A stretch of 64,000 bases of DNA from Candidatus Omnitrophota bacterium (GCA_043821285.1 JBDRCZ010000040.1:582-64581), one strand, 5' to 3'; positions 1-27,965 are shown, numbered from the stretch's first letter. A program made the numbers and translations. Notes: generated by a model not told the origin, from the sequence alone.

Positions 1-3000
1 CATATGTTCCCTAAGAAAAGCTACCCACCCTTGTTCTGCGGCTATTTGCATTACCCGCTCACACCACTCATTTCGCAGCCGTTTATGCTTCTTGAAAATA
101 GCATACTCAATAAGCAGTAAAGAAATAATCTCTGCATACAATCGCTTAGTTGAAGCAGCCTGAAAAATTTCTCTCAAACTATTCTTGTTAATTAACCCTG
201 CCCTACTTGCTTCTACTATTATTTCCATGGTTGCTTCACTCATACTAATCTGATACTGCCTAGCAATGTTTTGGACTTGTGGACTTCCCAAAACTTCAGG
301 CGCAGAAGATAAATTTTTAGCTTTTGTTCCCTGCCCACGTAAAGACACCCTAATATCCTTCTGCAGTTTTACAGCCTTTGTGTACTCATCTCTCCTGGCA
401 TGAAAACCACTGATTATTCTTTCTCCTAAATATTTCTCCGCCTCTTTCGGACAAAGGTCTAAAATATACTGACGCGCGTCGTTAACAACTTTCTCATCGC
501 TATCACGTAACACACTCAACACTAATGACTCCACTATTCGTGTCGGGAAGTTTTTCGGCGCAAAGTGCTCACAAATAATATTTTTCTTTGTCTCGATAAT
601 ATTAACCGCTTTTAATCGTCTTCCTTCTTCCTTTTCATTTACCGCGGCCATTAGAAAATGGAACAGTGAATATTGGAGCATTTCTGGCACGAATGCCCAT
701 TGTTCTGCTCTCTCCCGAACATCATCATTCTCTTCATCTAAAGCTGCACTTGCAAAATGTCCCGCGGCATCTCTTACTATTCCCAGTTGAAAGATTAACT
801 CGCCTGCTCTATTACGTAGTTCTTCTTTTTCATCCATAATAGCTGCTCCTACAAGTGGTCCAACGGTTTCTTCTATAAATTTAGGGATAAGTGCCTCGGC
901 TATTGATCGTAATTCTGGAAAATCTTTAAATTCTGGTTCATCTTTAGAAACCGCAAAGCGTACAACCAGCCCTGCGTATTCTTGCAATGGTTCCAGTTTA
1001 TCCAGAGCCAACTCCCAAACACCCCTATCTTTTGAAAAAGTGCTTGCGTTTCTAATGAGCCTTACCGCTCTCCGTCTACGCTCCCTTCTTGTTTCCCATT
1101 CTTTTTTATTAATGCCTGTCCTTATAGTGCCCTGTTCTCGAACACCGGGAGTTTTACCTGGATCTTCTTCGCCTGACATTCTCCTTTCTTCATCGACAAC
1201 AGGTAAAGGCTGTAATGGTTTCCTGCTTCCTGGGAGAATCGTTGTACTGTATGGACTCTTACCTAAGGCAGGGTAGAAACTATAACGTTCAGGAACAGTG
1301 ATACTGCTATCTTGTTTTTTCAAGATGTAAGTATCTACCAATCCCCGCTCTTTTGGACCAATAAATATAGGCATTAAAGTTATATTGATACCCCTTGTTT
1401 TAAATTCTAAGATGATTTCTGAAACTATACTTTCATCCAGCATGTGCTTTAAATTTGGTCCATGAATATATCCTCCATCCTTTGTAACTCGGATAATTTC
1501 AAGCATAACATCAGCCATTTCATCCATATCAATCGCTTCATAGCTTGTAACAATATCTATTGAACTATCCGGTAAAAAATCTAAATTCCGAGCATCCGCC
1601 ACACGAAATTCAACATTAGAAGGTATGTTTCCTTTCCTCCCACGAACCCCTTCATTTTTTAAATTATAAACGACCTTTATAGCCGTAATCGCTATCGAAT
1701 TTTTCCTTAAATCCTCTCTTAACTTTTCATGCCAAATATATGCAGAAATCTCTTGAGCTGCGCGAATAGCATCGGGAACACGATCAATTCCAATTACTTT
1801 CTTAGGATAGCCATATTTATCTATCTTACCAACTGCGGCAAAAAGAACAGGTATCCCTGCTCCACAACCCACATCTAAAATTATCTTCCCATCGAGTTCT
1901 CCTGTGCTTCGATGTATTGCTCCTATTTGCTTGTGTGCGTTAAACGCTCCAAGAGAACAAACTCTTAATGCAGCAAAGTCCTCTGGAGACATTTTTCCCG
2001 GGCTAGTTTCGTATGCAAACCCTACCATTCCCAACCCAAGATAAATCATTAAACCAATAAGACAAGCGCTGATAGCAAAAAGTGGAAGTCCTATCTGATT
2101 TAATCCTAAGCCGAGAATGAAGGCAGCAAATGGCAAGAAACCAAATATCTTAGCTAAAAGTTCATTGTCTCTTGGAAAAAGCACATTCCCCATCTCATAT
2201 AAATTCAGGGATAATTTAACCATGAGCTGCCTAAATGCTGGAAGATTGTTAACAGCTTGACTATAGCTAATGCTCCCAGCCTGCGTCCAGGAAGGCCAAA
2301 CCTCATCATCAGCAAGCGGCAGGCGCCATGCCTTATAATAACCATAAGCCAATACACCCGAAGTACTCATTACCAAGAGTACTGGCAGATTCATCACTAA
2401 TACTGCAGAAAGCTGGGCTAAGATAGAAACATTACTATCAATTTGCATTCCCCCTGCAATGAAATTCCATACCCCGAACAATACTACTCCTATCTCAATA
2501 AGTGCCAAAACTGCATATGTTTTAGCAAAAATCTTTGCCTGTTTTTTTGTTAGGAAAAGTACTGATTCTGCCCTAAGGGGATTTTTAACGCTATGATTAC
2601 GCTGATTAGCTAAGCTTTGGCTTAATCTACTAAAAAATGTCTCACCAAAATGTGTGCAAAAAAAAGCAACAACAATTTCCCCCTTTTTTTTATGTTGTAT
2701 GATATCTTCTCTTCTTACTTCAAGTTCTTCTCTTGAACCAATCTTATTCAAATCAACCCCGAACTTATCTGCCAATTCAAGCAAGAAGATAATTTCTTCT
2801 ACCGCTTTATTTTTATACCCATCTTTATAGCTATTTATTAAATGCTTACGAATCTTCGCTCGCCATTCGCTAAGTAGTTCGCCCTGAAGGAAACGGTATT
2901 CTATAATTACTATAATCGCATTTTTTAAAGCATCGAAAATGTCCTGGGGATAATCCTTAGCAAACGCCAGAAGACGTAACGCAACCTTTTCTTTTTCTCT

Positions 3001-4923
3001 TTCTTTTTCTTTTTTCTCTTCTTTAGATTTCGGTGTTGTAATAGTTGTAATAACTGTTTCTATATCTCGATAAATACCGAACTCACAATATGCTAACAAT
3101 CTTAACAACATCCCCACAGCCCGTCCTTTTTTAGTTAAGGCATAGGCAACAGGTCTATTTTTAATATCTATTTTCTCAATACAACCTGGGGGAACTATAT
3201 CCATTATATTTTGCCCTACAAGGCTAATTTTTTTCTCCGGTACTTCTCCTCCCGCATTTATTTCTCTCGCTATTTCTTTAGGCCGCACTATCGGGTGATG
3301 CTTCCATGTTAAATTAAATAGTGCTATTAAAATCGCTCTTTGTTTTGGATCAAGCGCCGTTACTTCTGATGAAAATCCATCAGACCGCCATAGTTTTTTT
3401 AACTCTTCTGTATCCCGAAGTGCTGGAGCTTCAACAATTCCTGTTTTCTCAATCCCCTTTGGTGTAAGTTCCCACCGCCCCCGATCGGATGAAAGCAACC
3501 CCTCTTTCTTTAACGCCTGCATTACTGCAGCTACTCTTAATTTTTCTATTTCTGCCCCTTCTGATTTTAACCGCTTAAGTTCATCATAAATTTCATCTAA
3601 TGTAGGAAATCGTCCGTTTTTTTCATAATAGCTCACAAATGCCTTGAGTACTAACTTTCTACTAATTATTTTATTTTCTAACGCCATCTCTTTACCATGT
3701 TTATCCTTAACTAAAACAACTTTTTTCCCTTCTCCCCCCTTACATCCAGAAATAACTAATTCTACCTCTGCCCCGGGAGGAAGACTTAACCGCTGCTTAC
3801 TGTTAGGGATATCTAATCTTCCATCTGAAGGGACTCTCGTACGTAGCTGCTCGGTAGAAGCGATGCCATTAAATTCTTCTTTGCCCAGTTTTTCATACCC
3901 CCTTACCAAACAGCCAGTTTTATCATAAATTCGCCACTTTGCTCTTTCGCCAATTAATTGAGCACACAACTCTCCCCTTAGCCTGCGAATAAACTGTTCC
4001 ATTGGTTCTGACTCGTTCCTTGTTATAATAATTGGCTCCCCTTGCAGACTTAAAATCGGCGTATCGTTTTTATAGGTCAAAAAAACCACGCTACTTATTT
4101 CGCCGTTTTTTGTTCTTATCGCAATACAAGCCTCTTCCAGATTAAGCACTGGGAGTAATTCTGTAAAAATAAGGCCACCCGCAAAACTTAACCTTGCGTC
4201 ATCATCCAACCAAGTTATACTTGTTACATCTCCTGTTTCAATGCGTTGTCCATGAATATTCCTAGTAAAAACATACAATAACTTACCTGTGTTATTATCT
4301 ACAACTATTGAACGTCGTACTTCAACAACTTTATCTCCATGAAAAATATACACTATAGTAATCATCTCTTTTTCCCCAGCCACATAGGTCTCATAGACTA
4401 CTTCACTTCCTGCATATTTACTAAATTTAGGATATGGGTTTGATCCTCTTGGCAACTTCCCGTATTTATCTATCACAGCTTTTCCAATTATTTTTCCACC
4501 ATATTTAATTGTAATCTCTTCAGATAACCCGGCAATCCAAACCGCATCTTTTTTTACCGGTATTTCTAAAACCGCTGGGTCCTCAATGTCTCCGGAAACA
4601 ACAAACACCCGCTCCCGATGATTATCATCAATTTTAATAAAAAGCTTGTTTTGTAATACTGCGGAATAAATAACATTAAGGCCGCTTAAAGATTGTTTAT
4701 GCTTCGCACCTTGCCTAATCTGCCGGTATGCCCGGCGTAAGTTTATACTAAGCTCTACTTCTTTTGCAACATCCGGGCCGGAGATATTTATCGCCGGGGC
4801 AAGATGAGTAAATACCCCCTTCAGATTGCCACCCGCAGCCCATGAAATGTCCAGGCAGAAGAAGGCATTTATTAATATTATGGCTATTAGCCTGAACCAA
4901 ATTGTGCGTGCCAAATTATTCAT
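1..4923 (-). CDS. Giant membrane protein, paralogous family member; 3' end runs off the window edge. Carries the shared N-terminal leader, a multipass TM block and a class I SAM-methyltransferase motif.
   Basis: This ORF is absent from the supplied ORF track because it has no in-window stop. Manual translation of the reverse complement gave an open frame of 1641 codons, from the ATG at 4921-4923 to position 1, with no stop seen. The start is preceded by a GAGG ribosome-binding site. The N-terminus MNNLARTIWFRLIAIILINAFFCLDISWAAGGNLKG matches the leader of the other giant ORFs. The following ~60 aa (HLAPAINISGPDVAKEV...LRRAYRQIRQ) and the TM block (AQLSAVLVMNLP...SGVLAYGYYKAWRLPLADDEV...SYSQAVNNLPAFRQ...KLSLNLYEMGNV) are homologous to ORF 5110..13695. 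It contains the motif ILDVGCGAGIPVLF. Confidence 0.7.
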   Translation of the reverse strand, partial: MNNLARTIWFRLIAIILINAFFCLDISWAAGGNLKGVFTHLAPAINISGPDVAKEVELSINLRRAYRQIRQGAKHKQSLSGLNVIYSAVLQNKLFIKIDDNHRERVFVVSGDIEDPAVLEIPVKKDAVWIAGLSEEITIKYGGKIIGKAVIDKYGKLPRGSNPYPKFSKYAGSEVVYETYVAGEKEMITIVYIFHGDKVVEVRRSIVVDNNTGKLLYVFTRNIHGQRIETGDVTSITWLDDDARLSFAGGLIFTELLPVLNLEEACIAIRTKNGEISSVVFLTYKNDTPILSLQGEPIIITRNESEPMEQFIRRLRGELCAQLIGERAKWRIYDKTGCLVRGYEKLGKEEFNGIASTEQLRTRVPSDGRLDIPNSKQRLSLPPGAEVELVISGCKGGEGKKVVLVKDKHGKEMALENKIISRKLVLKAFVSYYEKNGRFPTLDEIYDELKRLKSEGAEIEKLRVAAVMQALKKEGLLSSDRGRWELTPKGIEKTGIVEAPALRDTEELKKLWRSDGFSSEVTALDPKQRAILIALFNLTWKHHPIVRPKEIAREINAGGEVPEKKISLVGQNIMDIVPPGCIEKIDIKNRPVAYALTKKGRAVGMLLRLLAYCEFGIYRDIETVITTITTPKSKEEKKEKEREKEKVALRLLAFAKDYPQDIFDALKNAIIVIIEYRFLQGELLSEWRAKIRKHLINSYKDGYKNKAVEEIIFLLELADKFGVDLNKIGSREELEVRREDIIQHKKKGEIVVAFFCTHFGETFFSRLSQSLANQRNHSVKNPLRAESVLFLTKKQAKIFAKTYAVLALIEIGVVLFGVWNFIAGGMQIDSNVSILAQLSAVLVMNLPVLLVMSTSGVLAYGYYKAWRLPLADDEVWPSWTQAGSISYSQAVNNLPAFRQLMVKLSLNLYEMGNVLFPRDNELLAKIFGFLPFAAFILGLGLNQIGLPLFAISACLIGLMIYLGLGMVGFAYETSPGKMSPEDFAALRVCSLGAFNAHKQIGAIHRSTGELDGKIILDVGCGAGIPVLFAAVGKIDKYGYPKKVIGIDRVPDAIRAAQEISAYIWHEKLREDLRKNSIAITAIKVVYNLKNEGVRGRKGNIPSNVEFRVADARNLDFLPDSSIDIVTSYEAIDMDEMADVMLEIIRVTKDGGYIHGPNLKHMLDESIVSEIILEFKTRGINITLMPIFIGPKERGLVDTYILKKQDSSITVPERYSFYPALGKSPYSTTILPGSRKPLQPLPVVDEERRMSGEEDPGKTPGVREQGTIRTGINKKEWETRRERRRRAVRLIRNASTFSKDRGVWELALDKLEPLQEYAGLVVRFAVSKDEPEFKDFPELRSIAEALIPKFIEETVGPLVGAAIMDEKEELRNRAGELIFQLGIVRDAAGHFASAALDEENDDVRERAEQWAFVPEMLQYSLFHFLMAAVNEKEEGRRLKAVNIIETKKNIICEHFAPKNFPTRIVESLVLSVLRDSDEKVVNDARQYILDLCPKEAEKYLGERIISGFHARRDEYTKAVKLQKDIRVSLRGQGTKAKNLSSAPEVLGSPQVQNIARQYQISMSEATMEIIVEASRAGLINKNSLREIFQAASTKRLYAEIISLLLIEYAIFKKHKRLRNEWCERVMQIAAEQGWVAFLREHM

Positions 4924-5109
4924 ATGTTATGTCCTCTTAGTTAATTTCAAATGCCAAATCTCAAATGAATCATCCAATAAACAAATATTTTAATCTCAAT
5001 TTCTAATTAACCTAATACTTCTCGTATCGTGTATTGAGTATCGAGTATTGAGTTTTTTATTGTAGTTTTTTTATGCTCAATACGCAATACGCAATACTCA
5101 CGACGGTAC
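4924..5109 (-). repeat. Conserved intergenic module of the giant-gene array (heptamer-repeat hairpin plus ribosome-binding site).
   Basis: Contains gagtattgagtatcgagtattgag - A/T loop - ctcaatacgcaatacgcaatactc, an imperfect inverted repeat of TCAATAC(G/T) triplets. Also contains the shared block aattagaaattgagattaaaatatttgtttattggatgattcatttg. Confidence 0.8.
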
Positions 5110-8100
5110 CTAAATCGCACTTTCCACTAATCCCAACTCTACTATCTGCTTCAGCCCCAGTTCTTCAACAGGGCCGGCCAGCACCCCTTCCCACTGCTGC
5201 GGGGAAACATTAACCCATGCCTCTACAATATCCAGAATATCTTGTGGTTGCCATAAACCAAAAACAAATGCGTCTACCTTTTTCTCCAAAACATCACTTC
5301 TAAGGAACACCCCTCCCGCTAAAGGGACTAAAACGCTTACAAATCCTCTGCTGTGCATTTCTGCCGCGTGGCTATTGCTAGAAGAATATATCTTCCACGA
5401 ATTCCCAAAATGCATAATTTGACCTGGCAAAAGTCCTAACTCCTCAACATAACGTTGAAGCAATGGACCATTCAAAACGTCTTTATAACAATAGTCAACA
5501 TACTCGGCAATCTCCGGATGTTTGTTTTTTACATTGCTAAACCATCGCAACACATTAGGATTCCTGATGGTTATGGCAACGCGCAGTCCCATAGACTTAA
5601 GATTTTTAAAAAGCTCTAATAATCCCTCTATTCCATAACCCTGCAGCACCTTTTCCAAAACCTCTTCAAATTCAAAGGAAACTAATTTGATATCCTGCTG
5701 TGGCGGATGAATAATAAAATAATTACCTGTTTGGGGCATTCTCTGGTAAAGTTCTTCTTCTCTAATAACTCTTGGCTGTCCGTGCTTATTATAGACCACT
5801 ATCTGATCCAATAAATCATCGGAAAGCGGTCTGTAATTTAAACAGTGAATTATCCTTCTTAAAATCTCACGATGCTCTTGCCCGCGCGAATAATAATTGC
5901 TGTTGAGGTTAATAAAAAGCTCAAAGGAAATACCTAATTCCGCCAGTTTAATTTCTAATGCTGTTTTAAATTCTTCCCCATAAACCTCAAAATTTAGATC
6001 TTCACAATACCTGACTATCTTATCTAATATTACCCGGTAGTTTATAAGATAGCGCATTATCTCCCCTCTTTCCGCTTCCCCGCGCAAAAAGCGCTCAAAC
6101 ATAGCTAATATTTCTCTTTCAAACGCTGTGATTCTGCTTGCCCTACTTGCCATGGCTGCTTCCCACTGTTTTTGGTCCCGCAATGCACTGATTCCACGCA
6201 AGGCACGCGGGGTACGTTGCTCAGGCTCTGCTTGTCCATCTAAACTCTCTGCCAAAGGAACACTTCCCAAATATATCTTCCCACTATTATGATAAACAAG
6301 CTGATTTTCATGCCCATCAATACTAATAACTCTGCCGTCTTCCATTTTGTGCTCGCCCAGATACCATCCTTTCCTCTCCTCTTCGTCATAAAATTTCATA
6401 TTCGCTACCCCATAAACAGCAGTAATCCCATATGTTTGAGCAAGGGTTTCTGCATGAACAGAAATAATCTGTGCAACAATATGCACACCCCGAGGAATAC
6501 GGTTTATCATCTGCGGATTAACTCTATCCAAAAATAAAATCACACCATCTACGTCTTCTGGCTGTTCACGTTCATACTTCTCTAATAATTCTTCCGCCGC
6601 CTCAGCGGAATTAGCCACCCATCCGCGAAAAGCACCGCCGCTTACCCCGTGTCCGCGGGCAATTGGTTCATAATCCGGTGAATCCACAAATTCCGGATAA
6701 TCATCTTGAATAATATCGTCATTAGTCTGCGTAAGCCACAACTTCCCGAGTTCTACTGTAAACTCAAAGTGTTGATTATTCCCGAATATCTCTTTCAGCT
6801 GATAAGCATAAGCTAATATCTCTTGGTATATCTCTGGCTGTAATTCCTCAAGTGTCTGTTCGTGTTCAAATACCCTCTCTGTATTACTTAAAAGCACATA
6901 ATTCTGACCCGCCCGGCTCATTACCTGGTCTCCCGTAGATTGAAACCTAAATCTTCCCTGAACCACTTCTCTGCCATCAGGCAAAATTCTTAAAGCCGCA
7001 GCTCCTGCCCCGGATATTTTCCCATCTGCTGTTGGTGATAAATTGCCAAATACCCCTTTCTGCAATATAACTACGCTCCCCCATTCCTGCGAAATCCTGT
7101 GCCGCGCACGATACTCCTGAGCCTCGGCAGAATCCCAGGAAGCATAGACAGTATCAATTGCCAGCATTACTTGAACAATCATATCCTCCGGTATCTGTGC
7201 TCCTTTTCCATGTGTACTCACAATTTCTTTGTAACGCTCACATACCCTAATCATTTCTTCTCCAGACATATCATCCTTTTCATAAATATTAAGCACCTCT
7301 TCAAAATATTCCTCCGGAATTCCCAAAATATGAATAGCATACGCCCGGATAAACTCTGCATAAGTATCATAGGCAAACCATACGTCCCCGGTCTGTTCTG
7401 CTAACTCCTGTGCTTCTTTATCATTCATCCCTAAATTAGGTATCGTAACTAAAAGTCCGGGCAGGGCAAACGCCGAGCCGTTGCGCGCGTATAACAATAA
7501 TTTAAGCTCCGGATACTTTGAATATTCTCTTAACCGGGCAATCTCTCCCTCTACCTCTTCTTTGAATTCTTCTGATTTAGAGATCTCTGGCCGGGTAATT
7601 AACCTTGCGCTGATAACCACCCCCGGAGGAACCGGTATACCCTGCTCAGTCATCCAAACTAAATTAAGCCCCTTCTTACTCCACAGAGAAAGCAGGCGCT
7701 CGCGGGGAATTACATCTTCTTCTTGGCCAAATCTAAAAAACTGCTCTTCCATGACAATCTCATCCGTAGAGTCTCCGCCATCTATAAATTCATCATTACC
7801 CAAAGTCAGCTCATTCTCTAATATCTGATTAAACCGCATCAGCGCATCATCAAAGGCAAGTATTCCGGTATCGCGAATCAGCCCATCAATAAACTCACTC
7901 GCAGCTTGCTCTTTTCCTTCTTCACTAATAACTTCGCTTTCACCCCCAAATTCATCTATTCTTTTTTCAGTTTTTATTCTATCTTGCCACTCCTGTGTTA
8001 AATCCGCTAATTGCAGATTATCCCAGAAATGCCCCATTGCAAAGCGCATGTTTTCATTAATCTTGCGATTAATCTTATGCACTTCTGTACGTAATGCCCT

Positions 8101-11100
8101 GACTAAATCATGCACCTGGGAATATTTCATTCTGCCGTGCTCAAGTTCTTCAATAAACTGCGCAAAATCTATTCCTCCTAAGCCAGATGCATGCATAAAT
8201 TTTGCCATCGAAACTAAACTAGGAACATATTCTTTCAAGTCTTCCATGTCCTGGCATTGATTAATCTCTTCCAACCCCCTTACAATCATCTCTTTCCCCA
8301 ACATAAACATATTATAATCTAATTTCATCAACTCCTCTTTGTTCTCCAGACGATCATTCCGGTCAAATAACAAGTGCTGTCTGATTGCCCTCCGGCACTC
8401 AGCTATTGCCGAAAGAACAGCCTTATGTCCATCAGTATCAATAACCGAAATAAGCTGTGCATATTCCTGCTGCATAAATGATGTCAGTTCCAACATGTTT
8501 TTCTTGCGCCCCTCTCTCTCATTTTCCGCCCCAATTTCTCCTTTTATCTTAGGAACAATAGCCGCGGCAACCACACCATAACGCTCACTCAATGCATAAT
8601 ATAGCCGGATCATATACTCAACCTTCTCTAAGTCAGATGCCTGCGCATCTGGATTAGCTTCATGCAATGCCTTTATGACATCCTCTTCAGACATATTAAG
8701 AATTTCTGCTAAAAAACTATCCCCGGCTAATGATTTTATCTGCCCATTTTCCAAAAGTTTATTCAGCATTTGGTTAATTATTTCGGAATATGTTCGAGTC
8801 TTTTCCGCTCCAATATCTTTTTTTAAATTAGCAATAAGCTCATCTTTAGAATCTCGTATCATATCCTCATTTAATGCCTTCCAAAAATATAAAACTGTTT
8901 TTATTGTGCGCCGGTCTCTTGAACTTCCAGCGTGGTGGATTCTATTTCTTAACAAGGAAAACCATGTACGGCCATATTCTCCTGCATAACCAGCCCCACT
9001 ATCGAGCATAATAGTATTTCTAACTATCCGGTTATCAATAGCAGCATTTGTAACCCCTCCTTTTTTTCTTCTTTCTTCCATCTTTAAAAGATAATAATAG
9101 ATATTTTGTGATTCAGGGGTCAATAGATTAATTGTAGGTCCACGCCCACTCAACAGCTGAAGCAAGTGACTATCTTCTCTCCTCCATAATGGCTCAGCTT
9201 CTATTCCCACTAAATTAGCCTGTAAAAGACAAAAACTTGCTACTGCTTCTTTTTTGTATCGAACATTTTCTAAAAGGCTAAACAATAACGCAAGGTTTTT
9301 TCTACCTATTCTGAGTCTAAAAAGAACATCCATGGCCTTATAGGTTTTCTCTATATCTTTCTCCCTAAAAATTCTTGCTATCGTACGAAATGTGTCGATA
9401 TTAGAATTAAACAACAAAGCCGCCAAAACCTCCAGAAACCGTTCATTTTCCTCCTTAGTATTATTTGCATCAAGATAAAACTCCCAGAACATATCCTCTA
9501 CTCCCTCTACAAAAATTTCTCCTAACCTTAAAAGCATTATTCCTGTATCTATATCAGTTTCTAAGACAAATCTTCTTAAATAATTCTTTAAGGTTTCTGG
9601 TAATAATAATCCAAAAATACTGTGAATATCGCTTGCATCAACACCCAATTGTTCTTTTAAAAAGTAGTTTTCTTCGGACTTCATCTCATCCATCCTATCA
9701 TTCAACTTGCTTAATCTATCCCATCGCTGATTATATGTTTGTATCACTGAACCCAGTTCTTCAAATGAACATATTGGTGTGGTTTGCTGAATGATCTTTT
9801 TCAAAACACCTTCTATCGGGCTATAACCCGCCTCATAAAGCCTTACACTGATTACAAAGGGGGCAATATCTACCAGCACAGGATAGTCAATATCTTGTAT
9901 TATTGACCTAATCTTTTCATTTAAATCTTCTGGAACATCCCATGCGCCTACTAACCCCTGTTCTTTATCAAGCAGTACTTTAAAATGCCTCTTGGATTTT
10001 ATCTCTTCTTCAGCAGAGTCAAACTGATTAGCCGCATTCCCAATCGTCTCAAACTGGCCATAAAAGACAAAGGTTTGATCAGCCCTTAACATCTCCTGCA
10101 TTTTCCCTTGCCATTGCCATTGCCTATTCTCGCACTCAGCAGGATAATCGCTTTTATCAGTAAACACGGGAATAACCCCGCTATCTTCTCCAAGCACTGC
10201 TTGTATTATCTCAAGATAATCCACCCCATTCTTGGTTCGTGCCATTTGGTCAATAAACTCACGCAGAAAAATCTGCAACCTGCTTTTCCAAAGGACTCCC
10301 TCTGCATCTCTATAATAATTTTCCCTAAATATGTATTGCTGTATTTGCCTTGCCGCTTGATGTCCGGCTTTATAACATATTGCCTCATGGAAAAACAGTT
10401 CTGCTAAAAGTTCCATCGGCATTGTACTGATAAACTCCCCAGCTGCCCCAATCTCATTTTCATCACCATACGCCAGGGCAAAATCCTCTTTAGTATATAC
10501 TATTGCCGGAAATGAAAATAAGGCATTGTTTTCATACAACTCTTCAAGATGCTCCAACCCTGTTTTTGCCTGATCTAAATATTTTGGCAGGTTTTCCCTT
10601 TCCCATGCTGTTTGAGCCTGTGGGATATTTGTTTCAAACTCTTCAATTTTAGACCGGATATACTCTATAATCTCGTCAAAATTGGCAATATCAACCGGGG
10701 TAAGCTTACCTCTCTGCTCTTTCCTTATTGTTGCCAATTCCCCAGGTGCCTCCCCACCTCGAGATTGAACAAATCCATGATTATCTGTTTGTGCATTTGG
10801 TGCTATTTTGTTACCCTGAATATCGAATATATGCCCCCTTAACTCTGGGTGAGCGTCAATGATTTCCCGCAAAAGTTCAGCCGCAAATTCATGACTAAAG
10901 TAAAATTCTCCTGCAAAACGTTGAGGAGTATAATTTTCCCCTCGCTGCATTTGCTCAATAGCCTCCTGTTTTGCCTCTTCTATGGTGTAGATTGTTTCAA
11001 AAGGTTCCCTAAACCCTAAAAGAAGTATTCTTAAGAAAAGCAAAAAATTCTGTCGCTCAGAAAAAGGTAAATGAACAACGTGTATCCCGAATCTTGAAAG

Positions 11101-13695
11101 TGGAGGTAGTCTTGTAAATTTCCATCTATGGCGTGCCCTTATCACAGCTCTTTCAGAAGCAAATACTAAAAATTCATAGATTGAATGGAATGTTCCGACA
11201 TATCGAGCATGTTGCAATAAAAATTCACTCATATCTGTCATAATATCAAGATAATACATCTTGTTTTTTCTCCATTCTCTCTGATTGAATAGCCACGACC
11301 CTCTGGCACGCCTAAGAATAAAATATCGCAGTGTTGATGGCTGTTCTGTAAGACCTTTGGAAATGTAAAGCATGCTCTCGGGTAAATCTCTCACTTTCCC
11401 TTTTGCTGGAAATTCTGTTGTAATATGAAATCCTTTTACATACGAGAGAACATCTAATAATTCTGTATCATTCTGTTCCCGGGCTTCTTCTCGCAACCTT
11501 TCAACTATAAATTCCGCCCGTTCCACTGGAGATTTAGAATAATATTCCCTATAATATGCACGCCTAAAAAGAAATGTTGTGGTTAATCTTATTGGCAAAA
11601 CCATAAGTGGTTCAAAAATTAACTGTTGTATAAAAACCATAGCAAGGTCTACTACTATCAAAAATAATAGCGGTCCGATAATCAAAAATTGAATCTCTTG
11701 AGGAAGATGCGGACAAACTACAAGTGCAGCTAAAAATAACGGTACAACTTGCACCCACAAGGGGAATGAACGTGCTATAGTAATAACAGCAGAAATAATA
11801 GCTCCCCCCAGCCAATTGCGGATGTTTGTAACAACATTACCTAACCTTACCAAAATAGGCAACGCTGTTTCACTATCTTTTACAAATTTACTACCCCACA
11901 CACCCAACCCCAGATAAATCCCTGCGCCAATAATCGTTATAAGGAATGACAATGGAAAGAGTTCAATTTTATTAAAAATCAAACCTATTTGATTCACAAT
12001 CAACCCAATACTTATTATTGCCAGTGGCAAAGCAGTAAATCCTTTAGCCGAAAGTTCATCATCTCTTGGGAAAAACACATTCCACATCTCATATAAATTC
12101 AGGGATAATTTAACTATGCCTTGACGTAGTGCTGGAAGGTTGTTAACAGCTTGACTGTAGCTAATGCGACCTTCTTTTGTCCATGAAGGACCAACTTCAC
12201 CGTCAGCAAGCGGCAGGCGCCATGCCTTATAATAACCATAAGCCAATACTCCGGAGATGATCATCCCCAAGAGCGCTGGCAAATTCATTACTAATACTGC
12301 AGAAAGCTGGGCTAAGATAAAATCACCACTAGCAAATCCCATCCCACTGGCAAAGAAATTCCATAGGCCCACACCCAGTATAATACCTGTCAAGACTGAA
12401 TAAGCGGCAAAAAAACCCCTCGCCCATTCTTTGGTAAGGGGCAAACGCGTTGACTTAGGAGTACGTTGCTCACTTTGTTTACCCCAATAAGCTTTGCTTA
12501 ATGTATCAAAAAATTTGTACCCCACTCCTACTGGTACTGCAAGGAAGGTTAGCACTGTTGCTCCCCATTGCTCTTGTAGTTGTTTTTGTGCTTCAGACGC
12601 TTCTGTTGAGTCACCCCAGACATTACATAACAGTATCTTAATGCTTACTAATCTCGCTATGTTCGCTGGTGGCTCAATAGTACCTTGGTTGTCTCCTTCT
12701 TTCTCAATTGCTTTATCAATCATCTCCTTTGTCACTACTGCCGCTAATTTAGCTGAAACAATTTCAGGATAATTTTTACCCAGGTTCATAAGCCGCGTAG
12801 AAACTCTCAGCTTATCTTCGTTAACTTCTTCTATGTCTTCTTCCCTATATTCCTCGCTATCTTCTTCTGTATCTTTTGGCGTAAGTGTTTCTATGTCCTG
12901 ATAAATCTCAATGCCTTGAAAATACGCTCTCAATCTGATAATTAATTCCTCCTGAGCCTCTTGTAAATCCGCTGCCCCCAGAGTAAATCCATACATTTCC
13001 ATAATCCTCTTTTTATAAGCTTTTGTCTTAGGATCAACTTCTATTTCTTTAATTGGCACCAGAACCGTAGAGTCAGTTTTTTTACTAACCTCTCTTCCTT
13101 GTAAAAGCGGCATCACGTCCATCTCTAAAGCAGCACTAAGAGTATTGGCAATAAGTTCTATAGTTTCTATGCGCGGGTTATATGTTTTTCCTCTTTCGAT
13201 TTCTGAAATCACTCCCTGATTCAATCCTAAATCTCCTTGATTCAATCCAGCCCCTTGTCGTAAAATCCGGATAGCTTCTCCAACTGTGTATCCATCACCT
13301 GGTCCAAGTTCTTTAATAACTGGATCCTTGCCCCTCTCAGAAACAACAAACACTCGATTATTACCATTATCATTAATTATAATAAAAAGCCTTCTCTTAT
13401 CTATTACGGCTGCTTTTGAATAAGTAATACCATGCCGATCTAATACTTGCCCGGGATTTATATCTTCCGTTATCCGCATAATTTGTCTAACCTCTCTATA
13501 TGCCCGGCGTAAATCTATAATAAGCCCCACGTCTTTTGCAAAATCAGCACCAGAGATATTTATCGCCGGCGCCAAATGAGCAGACAATCCCTTCAGATTG
13601 CCACCTGCAGCCCAGGAGATGTCTAAGCAGAAAAAGGCTTGGATCAGTACGATAGATATTAATTTGAATAATATGTGTTGTTTTAGCTTACTCAT
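5110..13695 (-). CDS. Giant membrane protein (2861 aa) with the shared leader, a multipass TM block (aa ~400-720), and a large C-terminal region holding a PEP-synthase/PPDK-like ATP-binding motif and a phosphohistidine-like mobile-domain motif. Ends in SAI.
   Basis: ORF track. N-terminus is MSKLKQHILFKLISIVLIQAFFCLDISWAAGGNLKG. Long hydrophobic stretches. The motif GLNLVWMTEQGIPVPPGVVIS resembles the PPDK_N G-x-P-V-P-x-G-F-x-I motif. The motif VAQIISVHAETLAQTYGITAVYGV resembles the PEP-utilizing mobile domain. GAGG ribosome-binding site 9 nt upstream of the ATG. Confidence 0.85.
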   Translation of the reverse strand: MSKLKQHILFKLISIVLIQAFFCLDISWAAGGNLKGLSAHLAPAINISGADFAKDVGLIIDLRRAYREVRQIMRITEDINPGQVLDRHGITYSKAAVIDKRRLFIIINDNGNNRVFVVSERGKDPVIKELGPGDGYTVGEAIRILRQGAGLNQGDLGLNQGVISEIERGKTYNPRIETIELIANTLSAALEMDVMPLLQGREVSKKTDSTVLVPIKEIEVDPKTKAYKKRIMEMYGFTLGAADLQEAQEELIIRLRAYFQGIEIYQDIETLTPKDTEEDSEEYREEDIEEVNEDKLRVSTRLMNLGKNYPEIVSAKLAAVVTKEMIDKAIEKEGDNQGTIEPPANIARLVSIKILLCNVWGDSTEASEAQKQLQEQWGATVLTFLAVPVGVGYKFFDTLSKAYWGKQSEQRTPKSTRLPLTKEWARGFFAAYSVLTGIILGVGLWNFFASGMGFASGDFILAQLSAVLVMNLPALLGMIISGVLAYGYYKAWRLPLADGEVGPSWTKEGRISYSQAVNNLPALRQGIVKLSLNLYEMWNVFFPRDDELSAKGFTALPLAIISIGLIVNQIGLIFNKIELFPLSFLITIIGAGIYLGLGVWGSKFVKDSETALPILVRLGNVVTNIRNWLGGAIISAVITIARSFPLWVQVVPLFLAALVVCPHLPQEIQFLIIGPLLFLIVVDLAMVFIQQLIFEPLMVLPIRLTTTFLFRRAYYREYYSKSPVERAEFIVERLREEAREQNDTELLDVLSYVKGFHITTEFPAKGKVRDLPESMLYISKGLTEQPSTLRYFILRRARGSWLFNQREWRKNKMYYLDIMTDMSEFLLQHARYVGTFHSIYEFLVFASERAVIRARHRWKFTRLPPLSRFGIHVVHLPFSERQNFLLFLRILLLGFREPFETIYTIEEAKQEAIEQMQRGENYTPQRFAGEFYFSHEFAAELLREIIDAHPELRGHIFDIQGNKIAPNAQTDNHGFVQSRGGEAPGELATIRKEQRGKLTPVDIANFDEIIEYIRSKIEEFETNIPQAQTAWERENLPKYLDQAKTGLEHLEELYENNALFSFPAIVYTKEDFALAYGDENEIGAAGEFISTMPMELLAELFFHEAICYKAGHQAARQIQQYIFRENYYRDAEGVLWKSRLQIFLREFIDQMARTKNGVDYLEIIQAVLGEDSGVIPVFTDKSDYPAECENRQWQWQGKMQEMLRADQTFVFYGQFETIGNAANQFDSAEEEIKSKRHFKVLLDKEQGLVGAWDVPEDLNEKIRSIIQDIDYPVLVDIAPFVISVRLYEAGYSPIEGVLKKIIQQTTPICSFEELGSVIQTYNQRWDRLSKLNDRMDEMKSEENYFLKEQLGVDASDIHSIFGLLLPETLKNYLRRFVLETDIDTGIMLLRLGEIFVEGVEDMFWEFYLDANNTKEENERFLEVLAALLFNSNIDTFRTIARIFREKDIEKTYKAMDVLFRLRIGRKNLALLFSLLENVRYKKEAVASFCLLQANLVGIEAEPLWRREDSHLLQLLSGRGPTINLLTPESQNIYYYLLKMEERRKKGGVTNAAIDNRIVRNTIMLDSGAGYAGEYGRTWFSLLRNRIHHAGSSRDRRTIKTVLYFWKALNEDMIRDSKDELIANLKKDIGAEKTRTYSEIINQMLNKLLENGQIKSLAGDSFLAEILNMSEEDVIKALHEANPDAQASDLEKVEYMIRLYYALSERYGVVAAAIVPKIKGEIGAENEREGRKKNMLELTSFMQQEYAQLISVIDTDGHKAVLSAIAECRRAIRQHLLFDRNDRLENKEELMKLDYNMFMLGKEMIVRGLEEINQCQDMEDLKEYVPSLVSMAKFMHASGLGGIDFAQFIEELEHGRMKYSQVHDLVRALRTEVHKINRKINENMRFAMGHFWDNLQLADLTQEWQDRIKTEKRIDEFGGESEVISEEGKEQAASEFIDGLIRDTGILAFDDALMRFNQILENELTLGNDEFIDGGDSTDEIVMEEQFFRFGQEEDVIPRERLLSLWSKKGLNLVWMTEQGIPVPPGVVISARLITRPEISKSEEFKEEVEGEIARLREYSKYPELKLLLYARNGSAFALPGLLVTIPNLGMNDKEAQELAEQTGDVWFAYDTYAEFIRAYAIHILGIPEEYFEEVLNIYEKDDMSGEEMIRVCERYKEIVSTHGKGAQIPEDMIVQVMLAIDTVYASWDSAEAQEYRARHRISQEWGSVVILQKGVFGNLSPTADGKISGAGAAALRILPDGREVVQGRFRFQSTGDQVMSRAGQNYVLLSNTERVFEHEQTLEELQPEIYQEILAYAYQLKEIFGNNQHFEFTVELGKLWLTQTNDDIIQDDYPEFVDSPDYEPIARGHGVSGGAFRGWVANSAEAAEELLEKYEREQPEDVDGVILFLDRVNPQMINRIPRGVHIVAQIISVHAETLAQTYGITAVYGVANMKFYDEEERKGWYLGEHKMEDGRVISIDGHENQLVYHNSGKIYLGSVPLAESLDGQAEPEQRTPRALRGISALRDQKQWEAAMASRASRITAFEREILAMFERFLRGEAERGEIMRYLINYRVILDKIVRYCEDLNFEVYGEEFKTALEIKLAELGISFELFINLNSNYYSRGQEHREILRRIIHCLNYRPLSDDLLDQIVVYNKHGQPRVIREEELYQRMPQTGNYFIIHPPQQDIKLVSFEFEEVLEKVLQGYGIEGLLELFKNLKSMGLRVAITIRNPNVLRWFSNVKNKHPEIAEYVDYCYKDVLNGPLLQRYVEELGLLPGQIMHFGNSWKIYSSSNSHAAEMHSRGFVSVLVPLAGGVFLRSDVLEKKVDAFVFGLWQPQDILDIVEAWVNVSPQQWEGVLAGPVEELGLKQIVELGLVESAI

Positions 13696-14074
13696 ATGTT
13701 AATGCCTCATTACTTAATTTCAAATGCCAAATGCCAAAATCCCCGCCACAAAGTCGAAGATCCGCCAACGCTTTGTAGTGGACATCGGCGGACGGGCAAA
13801 TTCCAAATGACAAATGAATCATCCAATAAACAAATATTTTAATTTTAATTTCTAATTAACCTAATACTTCTCGTATCGAGTATTGAGTTTTTTATTGTAG
13901 TTTTTTTATGCTCAATACGCAATACACATTACTAATTAAATCCTCGATACCCAATGCGTAGTTTTAAAGTCTTTCTCCGTGTCCTCTGTGCGCTCTGTGG
14001 TAAAATTTTATTTTTTTCGTGTATTTCGTGGTTGAAAATAAATTTTGATTTTTGAAGTTTGGATTTTGGATTTA
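13696..14074 (-). repeat. Conserved intergenic module with the heptamer hairpin, a GC-rich small hairpin, the CACNGAG x3 repeat and the TTTCGTG x2 element.
   Basis: Shares long nucleotide stretches with 21869..22424 and 27615..27965. Confidence 0.8.
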
Positions 14075-17000
14075 TCAAATCGCCCTCTCTACCTCTTCCA
14101 ACCTACTTACCTGCATAGCGTCGAGTACTTCCGTAGAAAATAGAGTATCATTATATAGTGATTCTTTTGGCATAGTTAATAGCAGTACTTCCTCCAATAA
14201 TTGTTGTGTCTTACCCTTACTATCTCTATAATCAACTCCATCAATTATCTCTCCCAGTGCCACAACTGTTTCGTCCAGAAGAGCCCTTACCTCACCGATA
14301 AAAACCGGGTTCTTCTGGCGTTCCTGCTCAAGAAGTATCAAAGTTGGCTTTATCGGTTCCCAGTCTGCTTCGTAACGATCTGGCCAGCCCCCCAGTGAGC
14401 GTGATTCTTTTAAAAACCATCTCACATCAAGCGCACTTTCAAGGTTATGCTTTCTGAAAATTTCCCTTAAACTATTTTGAAAATAATCCCATACTATTGC
14501 TGCCTGCTGCGTTTTATCATTTGATTCAATCATCCCTTCTTTAGAAGCAAGTGCCCAGCATAAACGCTGCCAAGCTCTGGACTCAAAGAAAAGCCTTCCT
14601 GTTTCCTTAAATTCCTCTTCTGCTTTATTTAGCTGTTCCTCCTCTAAATAGATTCCCTGAAATTGCATTTTTATAAACTGCTCTAAATATTGCATGTATA
14701 CTATTGCATGACGATTAAGATAATCTGTTCTGCCTTCAAGCTGAGGTGCCCCATGGATATGTTCCACAACTCCTCCACCATGTACCAAAGGTGCACTTTT
14801 ACCCCAGGTAGTCTCAAATGGGCCTTCTTTCCAATCATCATGTGCATAAGGAGATGTGGCAAGAAGGGCTATGGCAATATGTTTTGCTTCATCAGGTAAT
14901 CTGCCTTGCACAGTCATCATATCTGTATAATATTCTCCCTCTTCACCAAGAAGCCCTAATTGTCTAAGATGCACAAGTATATACGACAGTGTATCCGCGG
15001 CACGGCTAGGAGGAACAATAATATGTTCTCTCTCTAAAACTGTTCCTCGATTACGCACGTCAAAACCAAGGAGACGATACATCTTGTTTTTAGACATACT
15101 AAATGGAAACTGCGGGTAGACTTTTCGCCCCACAGGTTGTAGATCTCTACTTCTCTCTTCTCGGTTAAGAATAAGTTCAACTACTTCTTTTTTAATTCTT
15201 TGGCGTAAGGCATCTTTATTTTCTAAAATATCTGTAACCTTCTTTCCTTCTTCCAGTTGTTCTAATATCCTTACCACTGCTCCAAGCTTTATCGCCATTT
15301 TTGCACCTGGGGATATATCTTGAGGAAATTCTTTGTCTAATCTAAGGCTGTCGGCAATCATCACAGCACGAAAATAAGAGTCGATCGAGGGGATCTGCTC
15401 AATCCAATCTTCTATAGGAACCAAGCACGCTTTAAAAAATGCAGCAAGAAAAGCAATGCACCATAATAGCCCAAAATTAAGGCTCTGATCATAGAGTGAT
15501 GCTCCAGGCAAAAGTAAAGATAGCGCTAATATACTAACAATAAATAGCGCACAGTGACGAAAAATTCTTATATTTTCAACTCCTTGTTTTTTAAGTAATT
15601 GGGAACTTTCTCTTAGAATATATCTTATCGTTAAGTCCACTATGCTCATCCCTTCTTTTAGTCCTCTGTTCTGAATTTCTTTAGTAAAACTCCAGAAATT
15701 TCGAAAATACGGTTTTAGCAATAACCTATTGAAAATAAAACTCCAAAGTTTCCATGTGGAATTTATAGATAGAAGTACATTAACACAAAGAAATATCATA
15801 AGTAGCACTAAGTATTCCGTCCAGTCACAACTAGCAATAACCTTAAGCATAACAGGGCCCCATTCACTAAATAAAACCACTATACTTAAAACTAAAAGAC
15901 TACCATAAGCGAATAATATTTCTATATCTGCCTTAACTTCATTTTCTGTTTTTAACACTAAATGGCTTAGTTCATGCGGCAGGACAAACCAGTAGGATAT
16001 CTTTATGGCAATTGTGGCACTAATGCTTATAATTGTCTGTAGATAAAAAGGTAAAGAAGAACGCTTGAGTCTTTTCTGGACTTTTTCTATATATTCATCT
16101 GTGTTATTAATAATTCTGTTAGTATTCGGGTCAAATTCAGCTAAAGGATTAAATCCAGTTATTATGGCAATCCCAGAGATAATCGCAGAAACAAGTGGAA
16201 TAAGTATAAACACTGTTAAAAATGCTCCAGCCAAGATACCCGCAAACATATTCGTAGCAAAAACAGGCCAAAACCCGGTTAAAACACTATATCCCCCAAC
16301 CGCCCCACTCATCAAAAACGCAGCCACGGATGTCCAAAATTGGTGTTTCGGGGTTATGGGAAGTTTATCAGATACTAACACCTTTTCTGGTAATATTCTA
16401 TGGAATAATCCTGCAATATATGCTGCAACTAAAGAATCCTCTACAGATTTTATCCGATTAGCATTCGCTAAGTATTGTGTCCAAGATATTTTCTCTTGCA
16501 ATAAAGCTATTGCTTGTTCTAACATACTAATTGCAAATTCAACCCTTTTAACGCTAATTTTGTCCTGTTCTTCACGGAAATGATTTAGTCCCGGGAACCG
16601 TACCTTACGTGATCTATTACCAGGATTACCAACAGCATCTAATAAGCTCTCTACATAATTATAAACGCTACTAAGTTCTATATGTATCCTATTTAAGTCT
16701 CCATAAAGCAATTCACTATGCTCATGGACCATAACTTCTATTCTTTTTAGCCGTTCCAGAATAGGATGCAATGCACTTAGCGAAACATCATATATAACCT
16801 CATTCTTATAATTTGTCCCTTTTATCCTATCCAAATCTCCCTTCGCAATTGCAAGGTTTGATAGCACCGCTCGAAGCCGCTTTATATTATTCTTAAACCC
16901 CGGCACAGGATCAGGTTCATATATTCGTGTAAAGTATCCTAATAAATCCGGGCTACTTATCTCTAAAGCAGGTGCAAGATGAGTGTTTAAACTTTTTATA

Positions 17001-17098
17001 TCCCCACCCGCAGCCCAAGCAATATCTAAGCAGAAAAAGGCATTCACCAATATTACGGCGATTAGTTTAAATAATATGTTATGTTTTAGCTTGTACAT
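14075..17098 (-). CDS. Giant-family membrane protein (1007 aa) with the shared leader. An HExxH motif (LPHELSHLV) lies inside its TM block. C-terminus is EEVERAI.
   Basis: ORF track. N-terminus MYKLKHNILFKLIAVILVNAFFCLDIAWAAGGDIK. Multiple hydrophobic helices between aa ~240 and 470. Conserved C-terminal tail. Confidence 0.8.
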   Translation of the reverse strand: MYKLKHNILFKLIAVILVNAFFCLDIAWAAGGDIKSLNTHLAPALEISSPDLLGYFTRIYEPDPVPGFKNNIKRLRAVLSNLAIAKGDLDRIKGTNYKNEVIYDVSLSALHPILERLKRIEVMVHEHSELLYGDLNRIHIELSSVYNYVESLLDAVGNPGNRSRKVRFPGLNHFREEQDKISVKRVEFAISMLEQAIALLQEKISWTQYLANANRIKSVEDSLVAAYIAGLFHRILPEKVLVSDKLPITPKHQFWTSVAAFLMSGAVGGYSVLTGFWPVFATNMFAGILAGAFLTVFILIPLVSAIISGIAIITGFNPLAEFDPNTNRIINNTDEYIEKVQKRLKRSSLPFYLQTIISISATIAIKISYWFVLPHELSHLVLKTENEVKADIEILFAYGSLLVLSIVVLFSEWGPVMLKVIASCDWTEYLVLLMIFLCVNVLLSINSTWKLWSFIFNRLLLKPYFRNFWSFTKEIQNRGLKEGMSIVDLTIRYILRESSQLLKKQGVENIRIFRHCALFIVSILALSLLLPGASLYDQSLNFGLLWCIAFLAAFFKACLVPIEDWIEQIPSIDSYFRAVMIADSLRLDKEFPQDISPGAKMAIKLGAVVRILEQLEEGKKVTDILENKDALRQRIKKEVVELILNREERSRDLQPVGRKVYPQFPFSMSKNKMYRLLGFDVRNRGTVLEREHIIVPPSRAADTLSYILVHLRQLGLLGEEGEYYTDMMTVQGRLPDEAKHIAIALLATSPYAHDDWKEGPFETTWGKSAPLVHGGGVVEHIHGAPQLEGRTDYLNRHAIVYMQYLEQFIKMQFQGIYLEEEQLNKAEEEFKETGRLFFESRAWQRLCWALASKEGMIESNDKTQQAAIVWDYFQNSLREIFRKHNLESALDVRWFLKESRSLGGWPDRYEADWEPIKPTLILLEQERQKNPVFIGEVRALLDETVVALGEIIDGVDYRDSKGKTQQLLEEVLLLTMPKESLYNDTLFSTEVLDAMQVSRLEEVERAI

Positions 17099-17341
17099 AT
17101 CTCACCAAATATATTCATGAATTTCTAATTAACCTAATTGCTATTTCTCGTATTGAGTATTGCGTATCGAGTATTACGGTTTTTAAATTCGCAGTGATTA
17201 GTATATTTCACTCTTTGCCCCATGTCCTTTGCTTTCTGTTTTTAACATTTTGATTTTTGATTTTTTTCTGTCATCTGTTTGCTGTCTTTTAACTTCGGTT
17301 TCTTACACTAAATACGCAATACACAATACTCACAACGGTAA
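17099..17341 (-). repeat. Conserved intergenic module (a divergent copy).
   Basis: Contains attgagtattgcgtatcgagtattacgg and aaatacgcaatacacaatactcacaacggtaactaaatcgccc. Confidence 0.7.
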
Positions 17342-27614: not shown

Positions 27615-27965
27615 ATGTTAATGCCTCATTAGTTAATTTCAAATCTCAAAATCCAAATGACAAATGAATCATCCAATAAACAAATATTTTAATCTCAATT
27701 TCTAATTGACCTAATTTCCCCAACCTGAACAAGCCAGAACCAAACATAATCACACCACATTTGGCTCGTCCAGCTTGTCATATAAAAACCTTCGTGTTCA
27801 AACTTTCCCTTTTTATTTTTTCTGTCCTCTGACTTCTGTATTCTGTTCTCTTATGCTCGATACCCAATACTCAATGCGTAGTTTTAAAGTCTTTCTCCGT
27901 GTCCTCTGTGCGCTCTGTGGTAAAATTTTTATTTTTTTCACGCAATCCGCAATACGTATCTCCAA
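27615..27965 (-). repeat. Upstream module of the last array gene, with the same conserved blocks.
   Basis: ctccgtgtcctctgtgcgctctgtggtaaaattttt at 27894-27925 is identical to 13974-14005. Confidence 0.75.

Follow-up and report, generated by a model that had tools for sequence, protein, structure and literature searches.

We analysed a stretch of 64,000 nt from a Candidatus Omnitrophota bacterium (GCA_043821285.1, JBDRCZ010000040.1:582-64581), referred to here as the window, in which spacers between very large genes, such as that at 4924-5109, carry a hairpin built from inverted heptamer repeats. It is well supported that this element is an imperfect palindrome of 55-80 nt, that its arms consist of 3-5 tandem degenerate heptamers, and that either strand reads 5'-(GTATTGA)n, loop, (TCAATAC)n-3'. 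Equally well supported is the conclusion that the hairpins of the window are a local family in a cross-phylum class of GTATTGA-type heptamer palindromes. The hairpin is not a canonical intrinsic terminator. Its function can be addressed tentatively; the explanation that leads at present is a co-transcribed 3' or intercistronic stem-loop involved in mRNA stability or processing. The results account for the repeated junctions between large Omnitrophota genes as the combination of a 3' hairpin module and a 5' leader module, both better conserved than the coding ends. They also define a fixed-polarity palindrome of one heptamer family that lies within about a dozen bases of stop codons, at operon junctions of cultivable Flavobacteriaceae, and thereby pose the question of whether such palindromes are functional RNA punctuation or tolerated slippage products.

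Inverted heptamers at the junctions of large genes

On the + strand, positions 5029-5100 read GTGTATTGAGTATCGAGTATTGAG, a 23-nt A/T loop and CTCAATACGCAATACGCAATACTC. A preliminary description of this DNA had placed a hairpin of inverted heptamer triplets at 5030-5100; the hairpin is real and non-random, and its first triplet differs from the one given there. The motif GAGTATTGAGTAT, allowing up to two mismatches, matches 34 times in the window against 1.8 expected, a number that none of 100 shuffles reached, and Tandem Repeats Finder called period-7 arrays at all sites. The flanking open reading frames (ORFs) all lie on the minus strand and the transcript is therefore the reverse complement of the sequence first described. 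Folds were accordingly computed on the transcribed (minus) strand, with z-scores against shuffles. At junction 1 the minus-strand hairpin (5026-5104) has a predicted RNA dG of -26.1 kcal/mol (z -5.7) and a DNA fold of -12.9 (z -3.2). In sense order it comprises a 5' arm at 5077-5104 (GAGTATTGCGTATTGCGTATTGAG plus a foot), a loop at 5054-5076 (CATAAAAAAACTACAATAAAAAA) and a 3' arm at 5026-5053 (CTCAATACTCGATACTCAATACACGATAC). The minus-strand hairpin of junction 2 (13872-13926; dG -14.8 kcal/mol, z -3.35) has the same 23-nt loop and a 3' arm shorter by two heptamers (14 nt). That of junction 4 (21996-22076, minus strand; dG -29.5 kcal/mol, z -8.4) has the loop of junction 1 and arms of 4-5 heptamers, which a repeat finder reports as 29-nt arms of 86% complementarity.

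Stems are thus 22-29 bp long, AT-rich and interrupted by mismatches, with a loop of 23 nt and no U-tract; the 3' flank is ACGAGAAGUAUUAGGUUAAUUAG. An imperfect stem of about 24 bp with a loop of about 20 nt had been anticipated, and the stem-loop is indeed imperfect and folds strongly; the G:U pairs expected in it come down to one in the minus-strand RNA of junction 1, which also has two C:U mismatches. The arm units are ATTGAGT, ATCGAGT and ATTGCGT. CGTCGTG at the foot of the junction 1 stem and GTAGTG in a copy at 45586 contain the CGTC and GTAG tags that mark certain repetitive extragenic palindromes at the foot of their stems; both are also ordinary heptamer variants, and the tag varies between copies. 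One frame stays open across the junction 1 element on the sense strand because the units there read TGC, not TGA, so closure of every frame is not a general feature of the element. When the entire junction is folded, the hairpin is the dominant structure. At the three intact sites the + strand forms folds of about the same strength as the minus strand; DNA-parameter folds are weaker, clearly exceeding shuffles at 5026-5104 and 21996-22076 and marginally at 13872-13926 (z -1.94).

The hairpins belong to an array of five large ORFs on the minus strand (1-4923, which runs off the window, 5110-13695, 14075-17098, 17342-21868 and 22425-27614), whose five spacers are paralogous. Junction 1 is the minimal form, in which conserved last codons and a TAG stop (5110-5112) are followed by a stem beginning 5 nt past the stop, a leader of about 100 nt, a GAGG-type ribosome-binding site (RBS) and an ATG at 4923; the position between stop codon and RBS is therefore as previously stated. 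The conserved minus-strand leader (4924-5023) contains an invariant ATTAGGTTAATTAGAAATT at 4998-5016 and the GAGG-type RBS, and paralogous minus-strand leaders lie at 13696-13871, 17099-17147 (truncated), 21869-21995 and 27615-27715. Junctions 1, 2 and 4 share an identical 23-nt loop, and their arms differ by whole heptamers; such changes in 7-nt steps point to slipped-strand mispairing. In junctions 2 and 4, other short repeats separate the hairpin from the stop codon. The hairpin of junction 3 (17148-17331, minus strand) is split, with its sense 5' arm (17311-17331) by the stop codon and its 3' arm (17148-17175) by the leader; the arms lie about 135 nt apart, separated by unrelated sequence, and the predicted long-range pairing is not significant (z -1.87). 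A lone 5'-arm remnant (22389-22417, minus strand) directly follows the TAG stop of ORF 22425-27614, about 310 nt from the intact hairpin of junction 4 and with other short repeats between them. Of five copies originally listed, three are thus hairpins, but the one at 17140-17170 is one arm of the split pair and the one at 22395-22425 is the lone 5' arm beside a stop.

Nor is the hairpin part of every inter-gene module, since the spacer in front of the first large gene (27615-28000) has the leader and no hairpin. Two unpaired heptamer arms are present there (27855-27880 and 27941-27965, minus strand), flanking a 73-nt dispersed repeat and forming no hairpin (z -0.68). Because the first large gene has a leader without a hairpin, the hairpin is taken to belong to the upstream gene, at its 3' end, and the leader to the downstream gene, at its 5' end. 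Hairpin and leader together are 90-96% identical between junctions and the leader alone 90-93%; the first 150 coding nucleotides, at 61-77%, fall below the non-coding junction. The conservation noted earlier is borne out by these values, but it reflects paralogy, the whole junction having been duplicated. It is well supported that the three intact copies are paralogues inside a repeated junction, and also that the loop region has taken insertions of other short repeats.

The leaders have two further features. Four of the five contain a conserved short upstream reading frame, read from the sequence only, which lies at about 4955-4985 in the first and begins with ATGATTCATTTG (MIHL..). The frame changes in length with a G+C-rich insertion, and its stop in junction 2 is a TAA that overlaps the main start (ATGAGTAA). 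G+C-rich inverted repeats (CCGCC...GGCGG), unusual for a genome of 40% G+C, are inserted into the leaders of junctions 2 and 4 at one common point and with unequal lengths (13741-13795 and 21905-21935). A similar repeat lies at about 48890-48915, some 45 nt upstream of the start at 48956.

A cross-phylum class of heptamer palindromes

A scan of species-representative genomes with GTATTGNGTATTGAG-N(15-35)-CTCAATAC returned at least 119 loci. They come from Bacteroidota isolates and metagenome-assembled genomes (MAGs), several Omnitrophota MAGs, Peribacteria/Peregrinibacteria, Balneolaceae, Fimbriimonadales, Chthonomonadales, Planctomycetia and Ardenticatenales. In BLAST comparisons of the window with the class loci, the heptamer arrays align over 20-37 nt, and loops and flanks are unrelated. 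A mobile element body shared across taxa was therefore rejected, the arrays alone being alignable. In other Omnitrophota the palindromes stand between ordinary genes, for example histidine kinase and response regulator, or epimerase and aminotransferase. Together with the copies in the window beside a tRNA-Arg gene and at 43486-43555 and 45586-45655, these loci make the association with giant genes, between which the preliminary description had placed the hairpin, incidental.

The class loci are strongly biased in position. Spacers carrying the palindrome are co-directional, convergent or divergent in 77, 16 and 2 cases, against 272, 46 and 57 for other spacers of the same loci, so that divergent spacers are depleted (2/95 against a baseline of 57/375, p = 1.9e-4). 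Grouping loci by their flanking proteins left 39 independent co-directional sites. The stop codon precedes the first unit by a median of 13 nt (interquartile range 3-33), and the last unit precedes the next start codon by a median of 28 nt. The upstream stop codon is TAG at 21 of the 39 independent sites, compared with 129 of 614 baseline ORFs (p = 1.5e-5), and in the sense-strand sequences of the class the TAG often opens the first unit (TAGTATTGAG). Polarity is fixed as well, with the GTATTGA units first: among hairpins not picked by the search pattern, 11 are canonical (seven from the loci and four from the window) and none is mirrored (binomial p ~0.001). The mirror pattern occurs in only 11 stretches, about seven of them distinct, in all metagenome contigs. 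Mirror palindromes, with TCAATAC first and GTATTGA second, do therefore exist (L123, L124, L127 and L129, which have the same sequence, and L125, L126 and L128).

The largest groups of loci are junctions within respiratory-complex operons of Bacteroidota, namely atpA|atpG and atpD|atpC (29 loci together), sdhA|sdhB (6) and nuoB|nuoC (3), with gene identities confirmed using Pfam. Kordia algicida OT-1, Christiangramia, Mesonia and Salinimicrobium are among the cultured carriers. Ten atpA|atpG spacers from Flavobacteriaceae keep their heptamer words without change; their inner stem and second hairpin differ, and compensation is seen there, both sides being altered in 7 of 25 pairs. An 8-nt motif is invariant at this orthologous junction in three Flavobacteriaceae genera, even as loops and inner stems diverged with compensation. 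The atpA|atpG loci (L010, L012, L027, L063, L065, L067, L079, L099, L110, L061 and L097) have a common architecture of about 120 nt. The stop codon lies within the first heptamer unit, whose partner in the fold is the last unit, close in front of the atpG start. Two hairpins, one of heptamers and one not, are enclosed by this outer pair, and the inner stems covary.

Searches of known RNA families gave no counterpart. At gathering cut-offs, Rfam returned only transfer RNAs and one FMN riboswitch elsewhere, and no hairpin family, for the window and 18 class loci, and a permissive Rfam scan of 4900-5130 gave only a chance microRNA match of 19 bits against a cut-off of 90. Neither Rfam 15 nor the searchable literature yielded a name or, in the case of Rfam, a model for GTATTGA-type palindromes; in that literature GTATTGAGTATTGA occurs only in an unrelated chloroplast paper, and GAGTATTGAG and CTCAATACTC are never coupled with the words heptamer or heptanucleotide. 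A scan of plasmids and viral contigs produced no palindrome matches, and so no support for a phage or plasmid source.

The closest described relative is the Class II (NNTGAGT) heptamer stem-loop in segment P6b of the Nostoc tRNA-Leu intron (PMC4476775, PMC3488679). Both arms of P6b consist of tandem degenerate NNTGAGT heptamers in matching register, a pattern that the window units fit. In both systems either arm, or both together, can gain or lose 7-nt units, insertions keep returning to a single position, where they make side structures (in the window, for example, the 135 nt of junction 3), and loops vary more than stems. P6b, however, lies within the group I intron of tRNA-Leu(UAA) in Nostocales, whereas the window hairpins are intergenic and stand just after stop codons. 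The window host is an omnitrophotan without the HIP1 sequence (GCGATCGC, 0 times in 64 kb), and the element recurs at several loci per genome and in many phyla. The window element therefore extends a known general kind, the heptamer-repeat stem-loop, to a new phylum, and the regularities of the class (polarity, stop-codon adjacency and orthologous recurrence across phyla) may be new.

Repetitive extragenic palindromes (REPs) provide a second comparison. REP families are species-specific as whole sequences, measure 20-40 nt and are mobilised by RAYT transposases (PMC3733652, PMC3116915), and GTAG-type REPs abut ORFs and supply their TAG stops (PMC3733652). The palindromes described here resemble REPs and REPINs in being imperfect, in occupying transcribed co-directional or convergent spacers beside ORF ends, in providing TAG and in having several copies per genome. 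They differ in that only the 7-nt unit is shared across phyla, loops are unrelated, the periodic arms vary, and the ORFs scanned included no RAYT gene. A third comparison is with the TAACTGA heptamer direct repeats of Beggiatoaceae, Cyanobacteria and Bacteroidetes, which lie directly upstream of start codons as direct repeats, with one inverted case reported, close all frames with three units and are presumed to function post-transcriptionally (PMC4679880). Both are intergenic period-7 arrays with a patchy cross-phylum spread that includes Bacteroidetes, and both have a stop codon in every unit, but the junction 1 sense strand keeps one frame open. Here, a different heptamer forms inverted arrays that make long hairpins after stop codons and, in the window, end about 100 nt before the ATG.

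Possible roles of the hairpin

Ahead of the alternatives weighed below, and tentatively, we propose that the hairpin is a co-transcribed 3' or intercistronic stem-loop with a role in mRNA stability or processing. The hairpin would be transcribed together with the upstream gene, and the mRNA would fold into a stem of 22-29 bp right behind the stop codon, inside the footprint of the terminating ribosome. Acting as a REP-type 3' or intercistronic stem-loop, this stem would block 3'-to-5' exonucleases or serve as a processing site for a double-strand RNase. The 3' end of each very long cistron would thereby be defined and stabilised, and the leader of the next gene would be insulated from upstream ribosomes; arm length would drift by slippage. 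In E. coli, REPs have a role in mRNA 3'-end protection. Stop-codon adjacency, depletion from divergent spacers and orthologous recurrence inside operons fit a transcribed 3' or intercistronic element. It is position, together with conservation at orthologous sites, that leads us to infer selection at the RNA level. An attenuator, also suggested at the outset, found nothing in its support.

Several observations weigh against this proposal. The palindrome is symmetric, so tests that compare strands are weak, and RNA-level statements are equally true of DNA hairpins. An alignment of the five window copies gave a covariation term of +1.72, with mostly one-sided changes; compensatory changes, the check first put forward for the hairpin, thus gave no signal in the window, and since these copies are paralogous, their covariation is uninformative and they cannot count as independent signs of selection. 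The sense strand has extra 3' units at 25 sites, against 10 with the opposite (p = 0.02); to these unpaired units, G/U-rich on the other strand, we attribute the slightly better folding of the antisense strand (29 sites against 10). An in-register count of wobbles at the 39 independent sites, all in other genomes, gave no preference for the sense strand, with G:U in excess of A:C at 6 and the reverse at 10 (p = 0.13). The A-rich loop strand of the 45586 copy is antisense to its flanking genes. Positional biases could mirror tolerance of insertion instead of function, ORFs in the class loci were called crudely as longest ORFs, and canonical and mirror palindromes were counted in separate collections. 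Transcription across the element is something that we infer, and the same holds for RNA ends and processing.

The most serious competitor, which we consider possible and still on the unlikely side, is that the palindromes are neutral or selfish DNA, generated by slippage and inverted duplication or by REP- or MITE-like mobilisation and persisting where harmless, that is, downstream of stop codons and outside promoters, with the RNA hairpin as a by-product. Copies vary in 7-nt steps, the same spacers are full of other period-7 arrays (GCATTTG, ATTTTGG, TTTTGAT), and the loop or its surroundings have taken up further short repeats. Related loops recur in copies at unrelated genes and in both orientations, the wobble signal is not strand-specific, covariation is absent from the window and the DNA hairpin is stable too. 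Nostoc P6b stems evolve alike, by 7-nt insertions and deletions and by insertions at a fixed spot (PMC4476775). On this explanation, however, one heptamer and one polarity would have to recur in distant phyla with no shared body able to move. The 8-nt motif would have to stay invariant across three Flavobacteriaceae genera as loops and inner stems diverge with compensation, and the junction would have to be more conserved than neighbouring coding DNA. Pfam scans of 25 window ORFs turned up no gene for a transposase or a RAYT-like protein, and neither viral contigs nor plasmids gave matches.

A bolder form of the functional reading is doubtful. It holds that the GUAUUGAG...CUCAAUAC palindromes are a cross-phylum, sequence-specific operon punctuation behind stop codons, recognised by a shared factor. 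Such a factor would be common to Bacteroidota, Omnitrophota, candidate-phyla-radiation bacteria and cyanobacteria. Candidates for it would be an RNase of wide conservation, a factor associated with the ribosome or with termination, or a protein that binds DNA, and the Nostoc P6b stem would be another instance of its target. If this were true, the shared factor would explain the common 7-nt word, the arm polarity and the strict conservation at ATP-synthase and respiratory junctions without a mobile body.

It is improbable that the hairpins act as non-canonical terminators, each large gene being its own transcription unit composed of promoter leader, ORF and 3' hairpin. Termination would need no U-tract, the long stem itself halting RNA polymerase, or else would depend on Rho at a site marked by the G-free (CUCAAUA)n arm. 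Intrinsic terminators combine a short G+C-rich stem and a loop of 3-8 nt with a U-tract immediately 3'. The hairpins share with them a stem-loop after the stop codon and differ in their AT-rich, mismatched stem of 22-29 bp, their 23-nt loop, the missing U-tract and their frequent placement inside operons. The preliminary description was right to set them apart from canonical terminators, and a terminator scan reports none of them, which is attributable to the same three features of U-tract, loop and AT-rich stem. In favour of a terminator, the hairpin is tied to the upstream 3' end, and the leader begins right where the hairpin stops and occurs even in front of the first gene; direct reading of the sequence finds TTAGGT-17-TAAAAT in the leader. 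There are also class members in convergent spacers, in which a terminator of symmetric form would act for either gene, and the 3' arm is G-free and, on the sense strand, often exceeds the 5' arm in length. Most class members, however, stand inside operons that need co-expression (atpA|atpG, sdhA|sdhB, nuoB|nuoC), a few nucleotides before the next start, and consensus scans for promoters and terminators showed no enrichment over shuffles, promoter-like matches numbering 49 against 49.3.

Less credible again is a binding array, in which a protein would bind the heptamer iterons as DNA or as unfolded RNA arms, or a portable promoter, in which the 5' arm and loop would form a sigma-70-like element (TTGCGT/TTGAGT, 17 nt, TACAAT) driving the downstream gene. 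The heptamer is invariant at orthologous sites beyond the needs of pairing, the fixed polarity suggests something beyond a hairpin of any generic sort, and direct repeats of heptamers are, in other systems, known as binding sites or suspected of regulation (PMC5930380; bioRxiv 10.1101/2022.06.06.494920). A scan flags TTGAGT-17-TACAAT at 22059-22031 on the sense strand; GATAAT takes the corresponding place in the other loop type, and equivalent positions lie within 5054-5090 and 13900-13925. The resemblance to a promoter may be chance in an A/T-rich loop. Against both versions, the distance between arms ranges over 10-35 nt and loops are unrelated across genomes, which sits poorly with a dimer site of fixed spacing or with a -10 element that is conserved. 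A promoter in one of the window copies would point antisense, A/T loops can be expected to contain -10-like hexamers by chance, and no candidate binding protein was identified. Finally, it is very unlikely that the repeated junctions serve as homology for gene conversion or shuffling of large surface-protein genes: junctions are 90-96% identical between unrelated gene bodies and an inverted pair of about 95 bp (43480-43576 / 45563-45659) flanks a whole gene, but no recombinase was found among the window ORFs scanned, there are no variant arrangements to compare, and the class elsewhere lies mostly at single-copy housekeeping junctions.

Further copies and repeats in the window

In total, the 64-kb window holds six hairpins and several lone arms, with two related loop types, and all window copies share the arm polarity. 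Away from the large genes, a degenerate hairpin of the same type and polarity (36441-36534, minus strand; dG -32.2, z -3.45) ends 3 nt before the 5' end of a tRNA-Arg gene (36362-36438). A related copy with an A-rich loop (TATAAAAAGATGATAATAAAAAATGC) at 43486-43555 on the minus strand follows the stop of a Wzc-like gene by 56 nt and folds weakly (z -1.84). Its inverted twin on the + strand (45586-45655, z -1.71) begins 4 nt after the stop of a Poly_export gene, and the two are 94.8% identical over 97 nt. A lone heptamer arm at 46800-46830, given no strand, is joined to the AACTAAAATCTGCGATCATCTGTAT segment that flanks these two copies, and forms no hairpin (z +0.78). Inverted repeats of about 97 bp (43480-43576 / 45563-45659), each comprising the heptamer hairpin plus AACTTAAATCTGCGATTATCTGT, flank the whole Wzc-like gene (43611-45545) of the exopolysaccharide cluster, and the segment may be invertible or recombining; a third partial copy lies at 46811-46861.

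The five large ORFs encode orphan proteins of 1007-2861 aa, and three of their four visible stop codons are TAG. Common to all five are only a hydrophobic N-terminus of about 50 aa (MSKLKQHILFKLI..AFFCLDISWAAGG) and a C-terminal ..LEVERAI* motif. The sole match to the 1007-aa ORF among 5.8 billion proteins is its own entry, ABH952_04570 'hypothetical protein' of Candidatus Omnitrophota bacterium (100%), and no orthologous locus for this protein was found among the genome contigs searched. This identity and the lack of HIP1 sites led us to reject a cyanobacterial STRR origin of the hairpins. A profile search with the N-terminus added one protein of 67 aa (P0002) on another contig of the same MAG. 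An identity as non-ribosomal peptide or polyketide synthases was rejected, since Pfam and NCBIfam give only PPDK_N and SAM-methyltransferase domains, and no match for two of the ORFs. Domains of the PPDK_N and methyltransferase type are reported in Omnitrophota giant proteins (bioRxiv 10.1101/2023.11.21.568195); hairpins or heptamers between genes come up neither in that study nor in 10.64898/2026.06.07.730766. The window has 40% G+C, and its remaining part is ordinary chromosome with an exopolysaccharide cluster, genes for Rnf/Nqr-type complexes and NADH dehydrogenase (Nuo51-type) subunits, and its only tRNA genes are tRNA-Ser and tRNA-Arg.

Heptamer repeats are the commonest long simple repeats in bacteria, and the genome analysed here seems generally prone to them. 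Other repeats accompany the heptamers in these spacers. A dispersed repeat of about 70 nt (..TTTTACCACAGAGCGCACAGAGGACACGGAGAAAGACTTTAAAACTACG..) occurs at 13947-14018, 22096-22162, 27867-27939 and, in reverse, 48618-48670; it adjoins heptamer arms in three junctions and lies once upstream of the + strand gene at 48956, and its first and third copies are 97% identical. More arrays of period 7 or 9 (CAAATGC, ATTTTGG, TTTTGAT, CTTCGTGAC) are found at 13721-13738, 14042-14073, 17248-17265 and 22241-22265.

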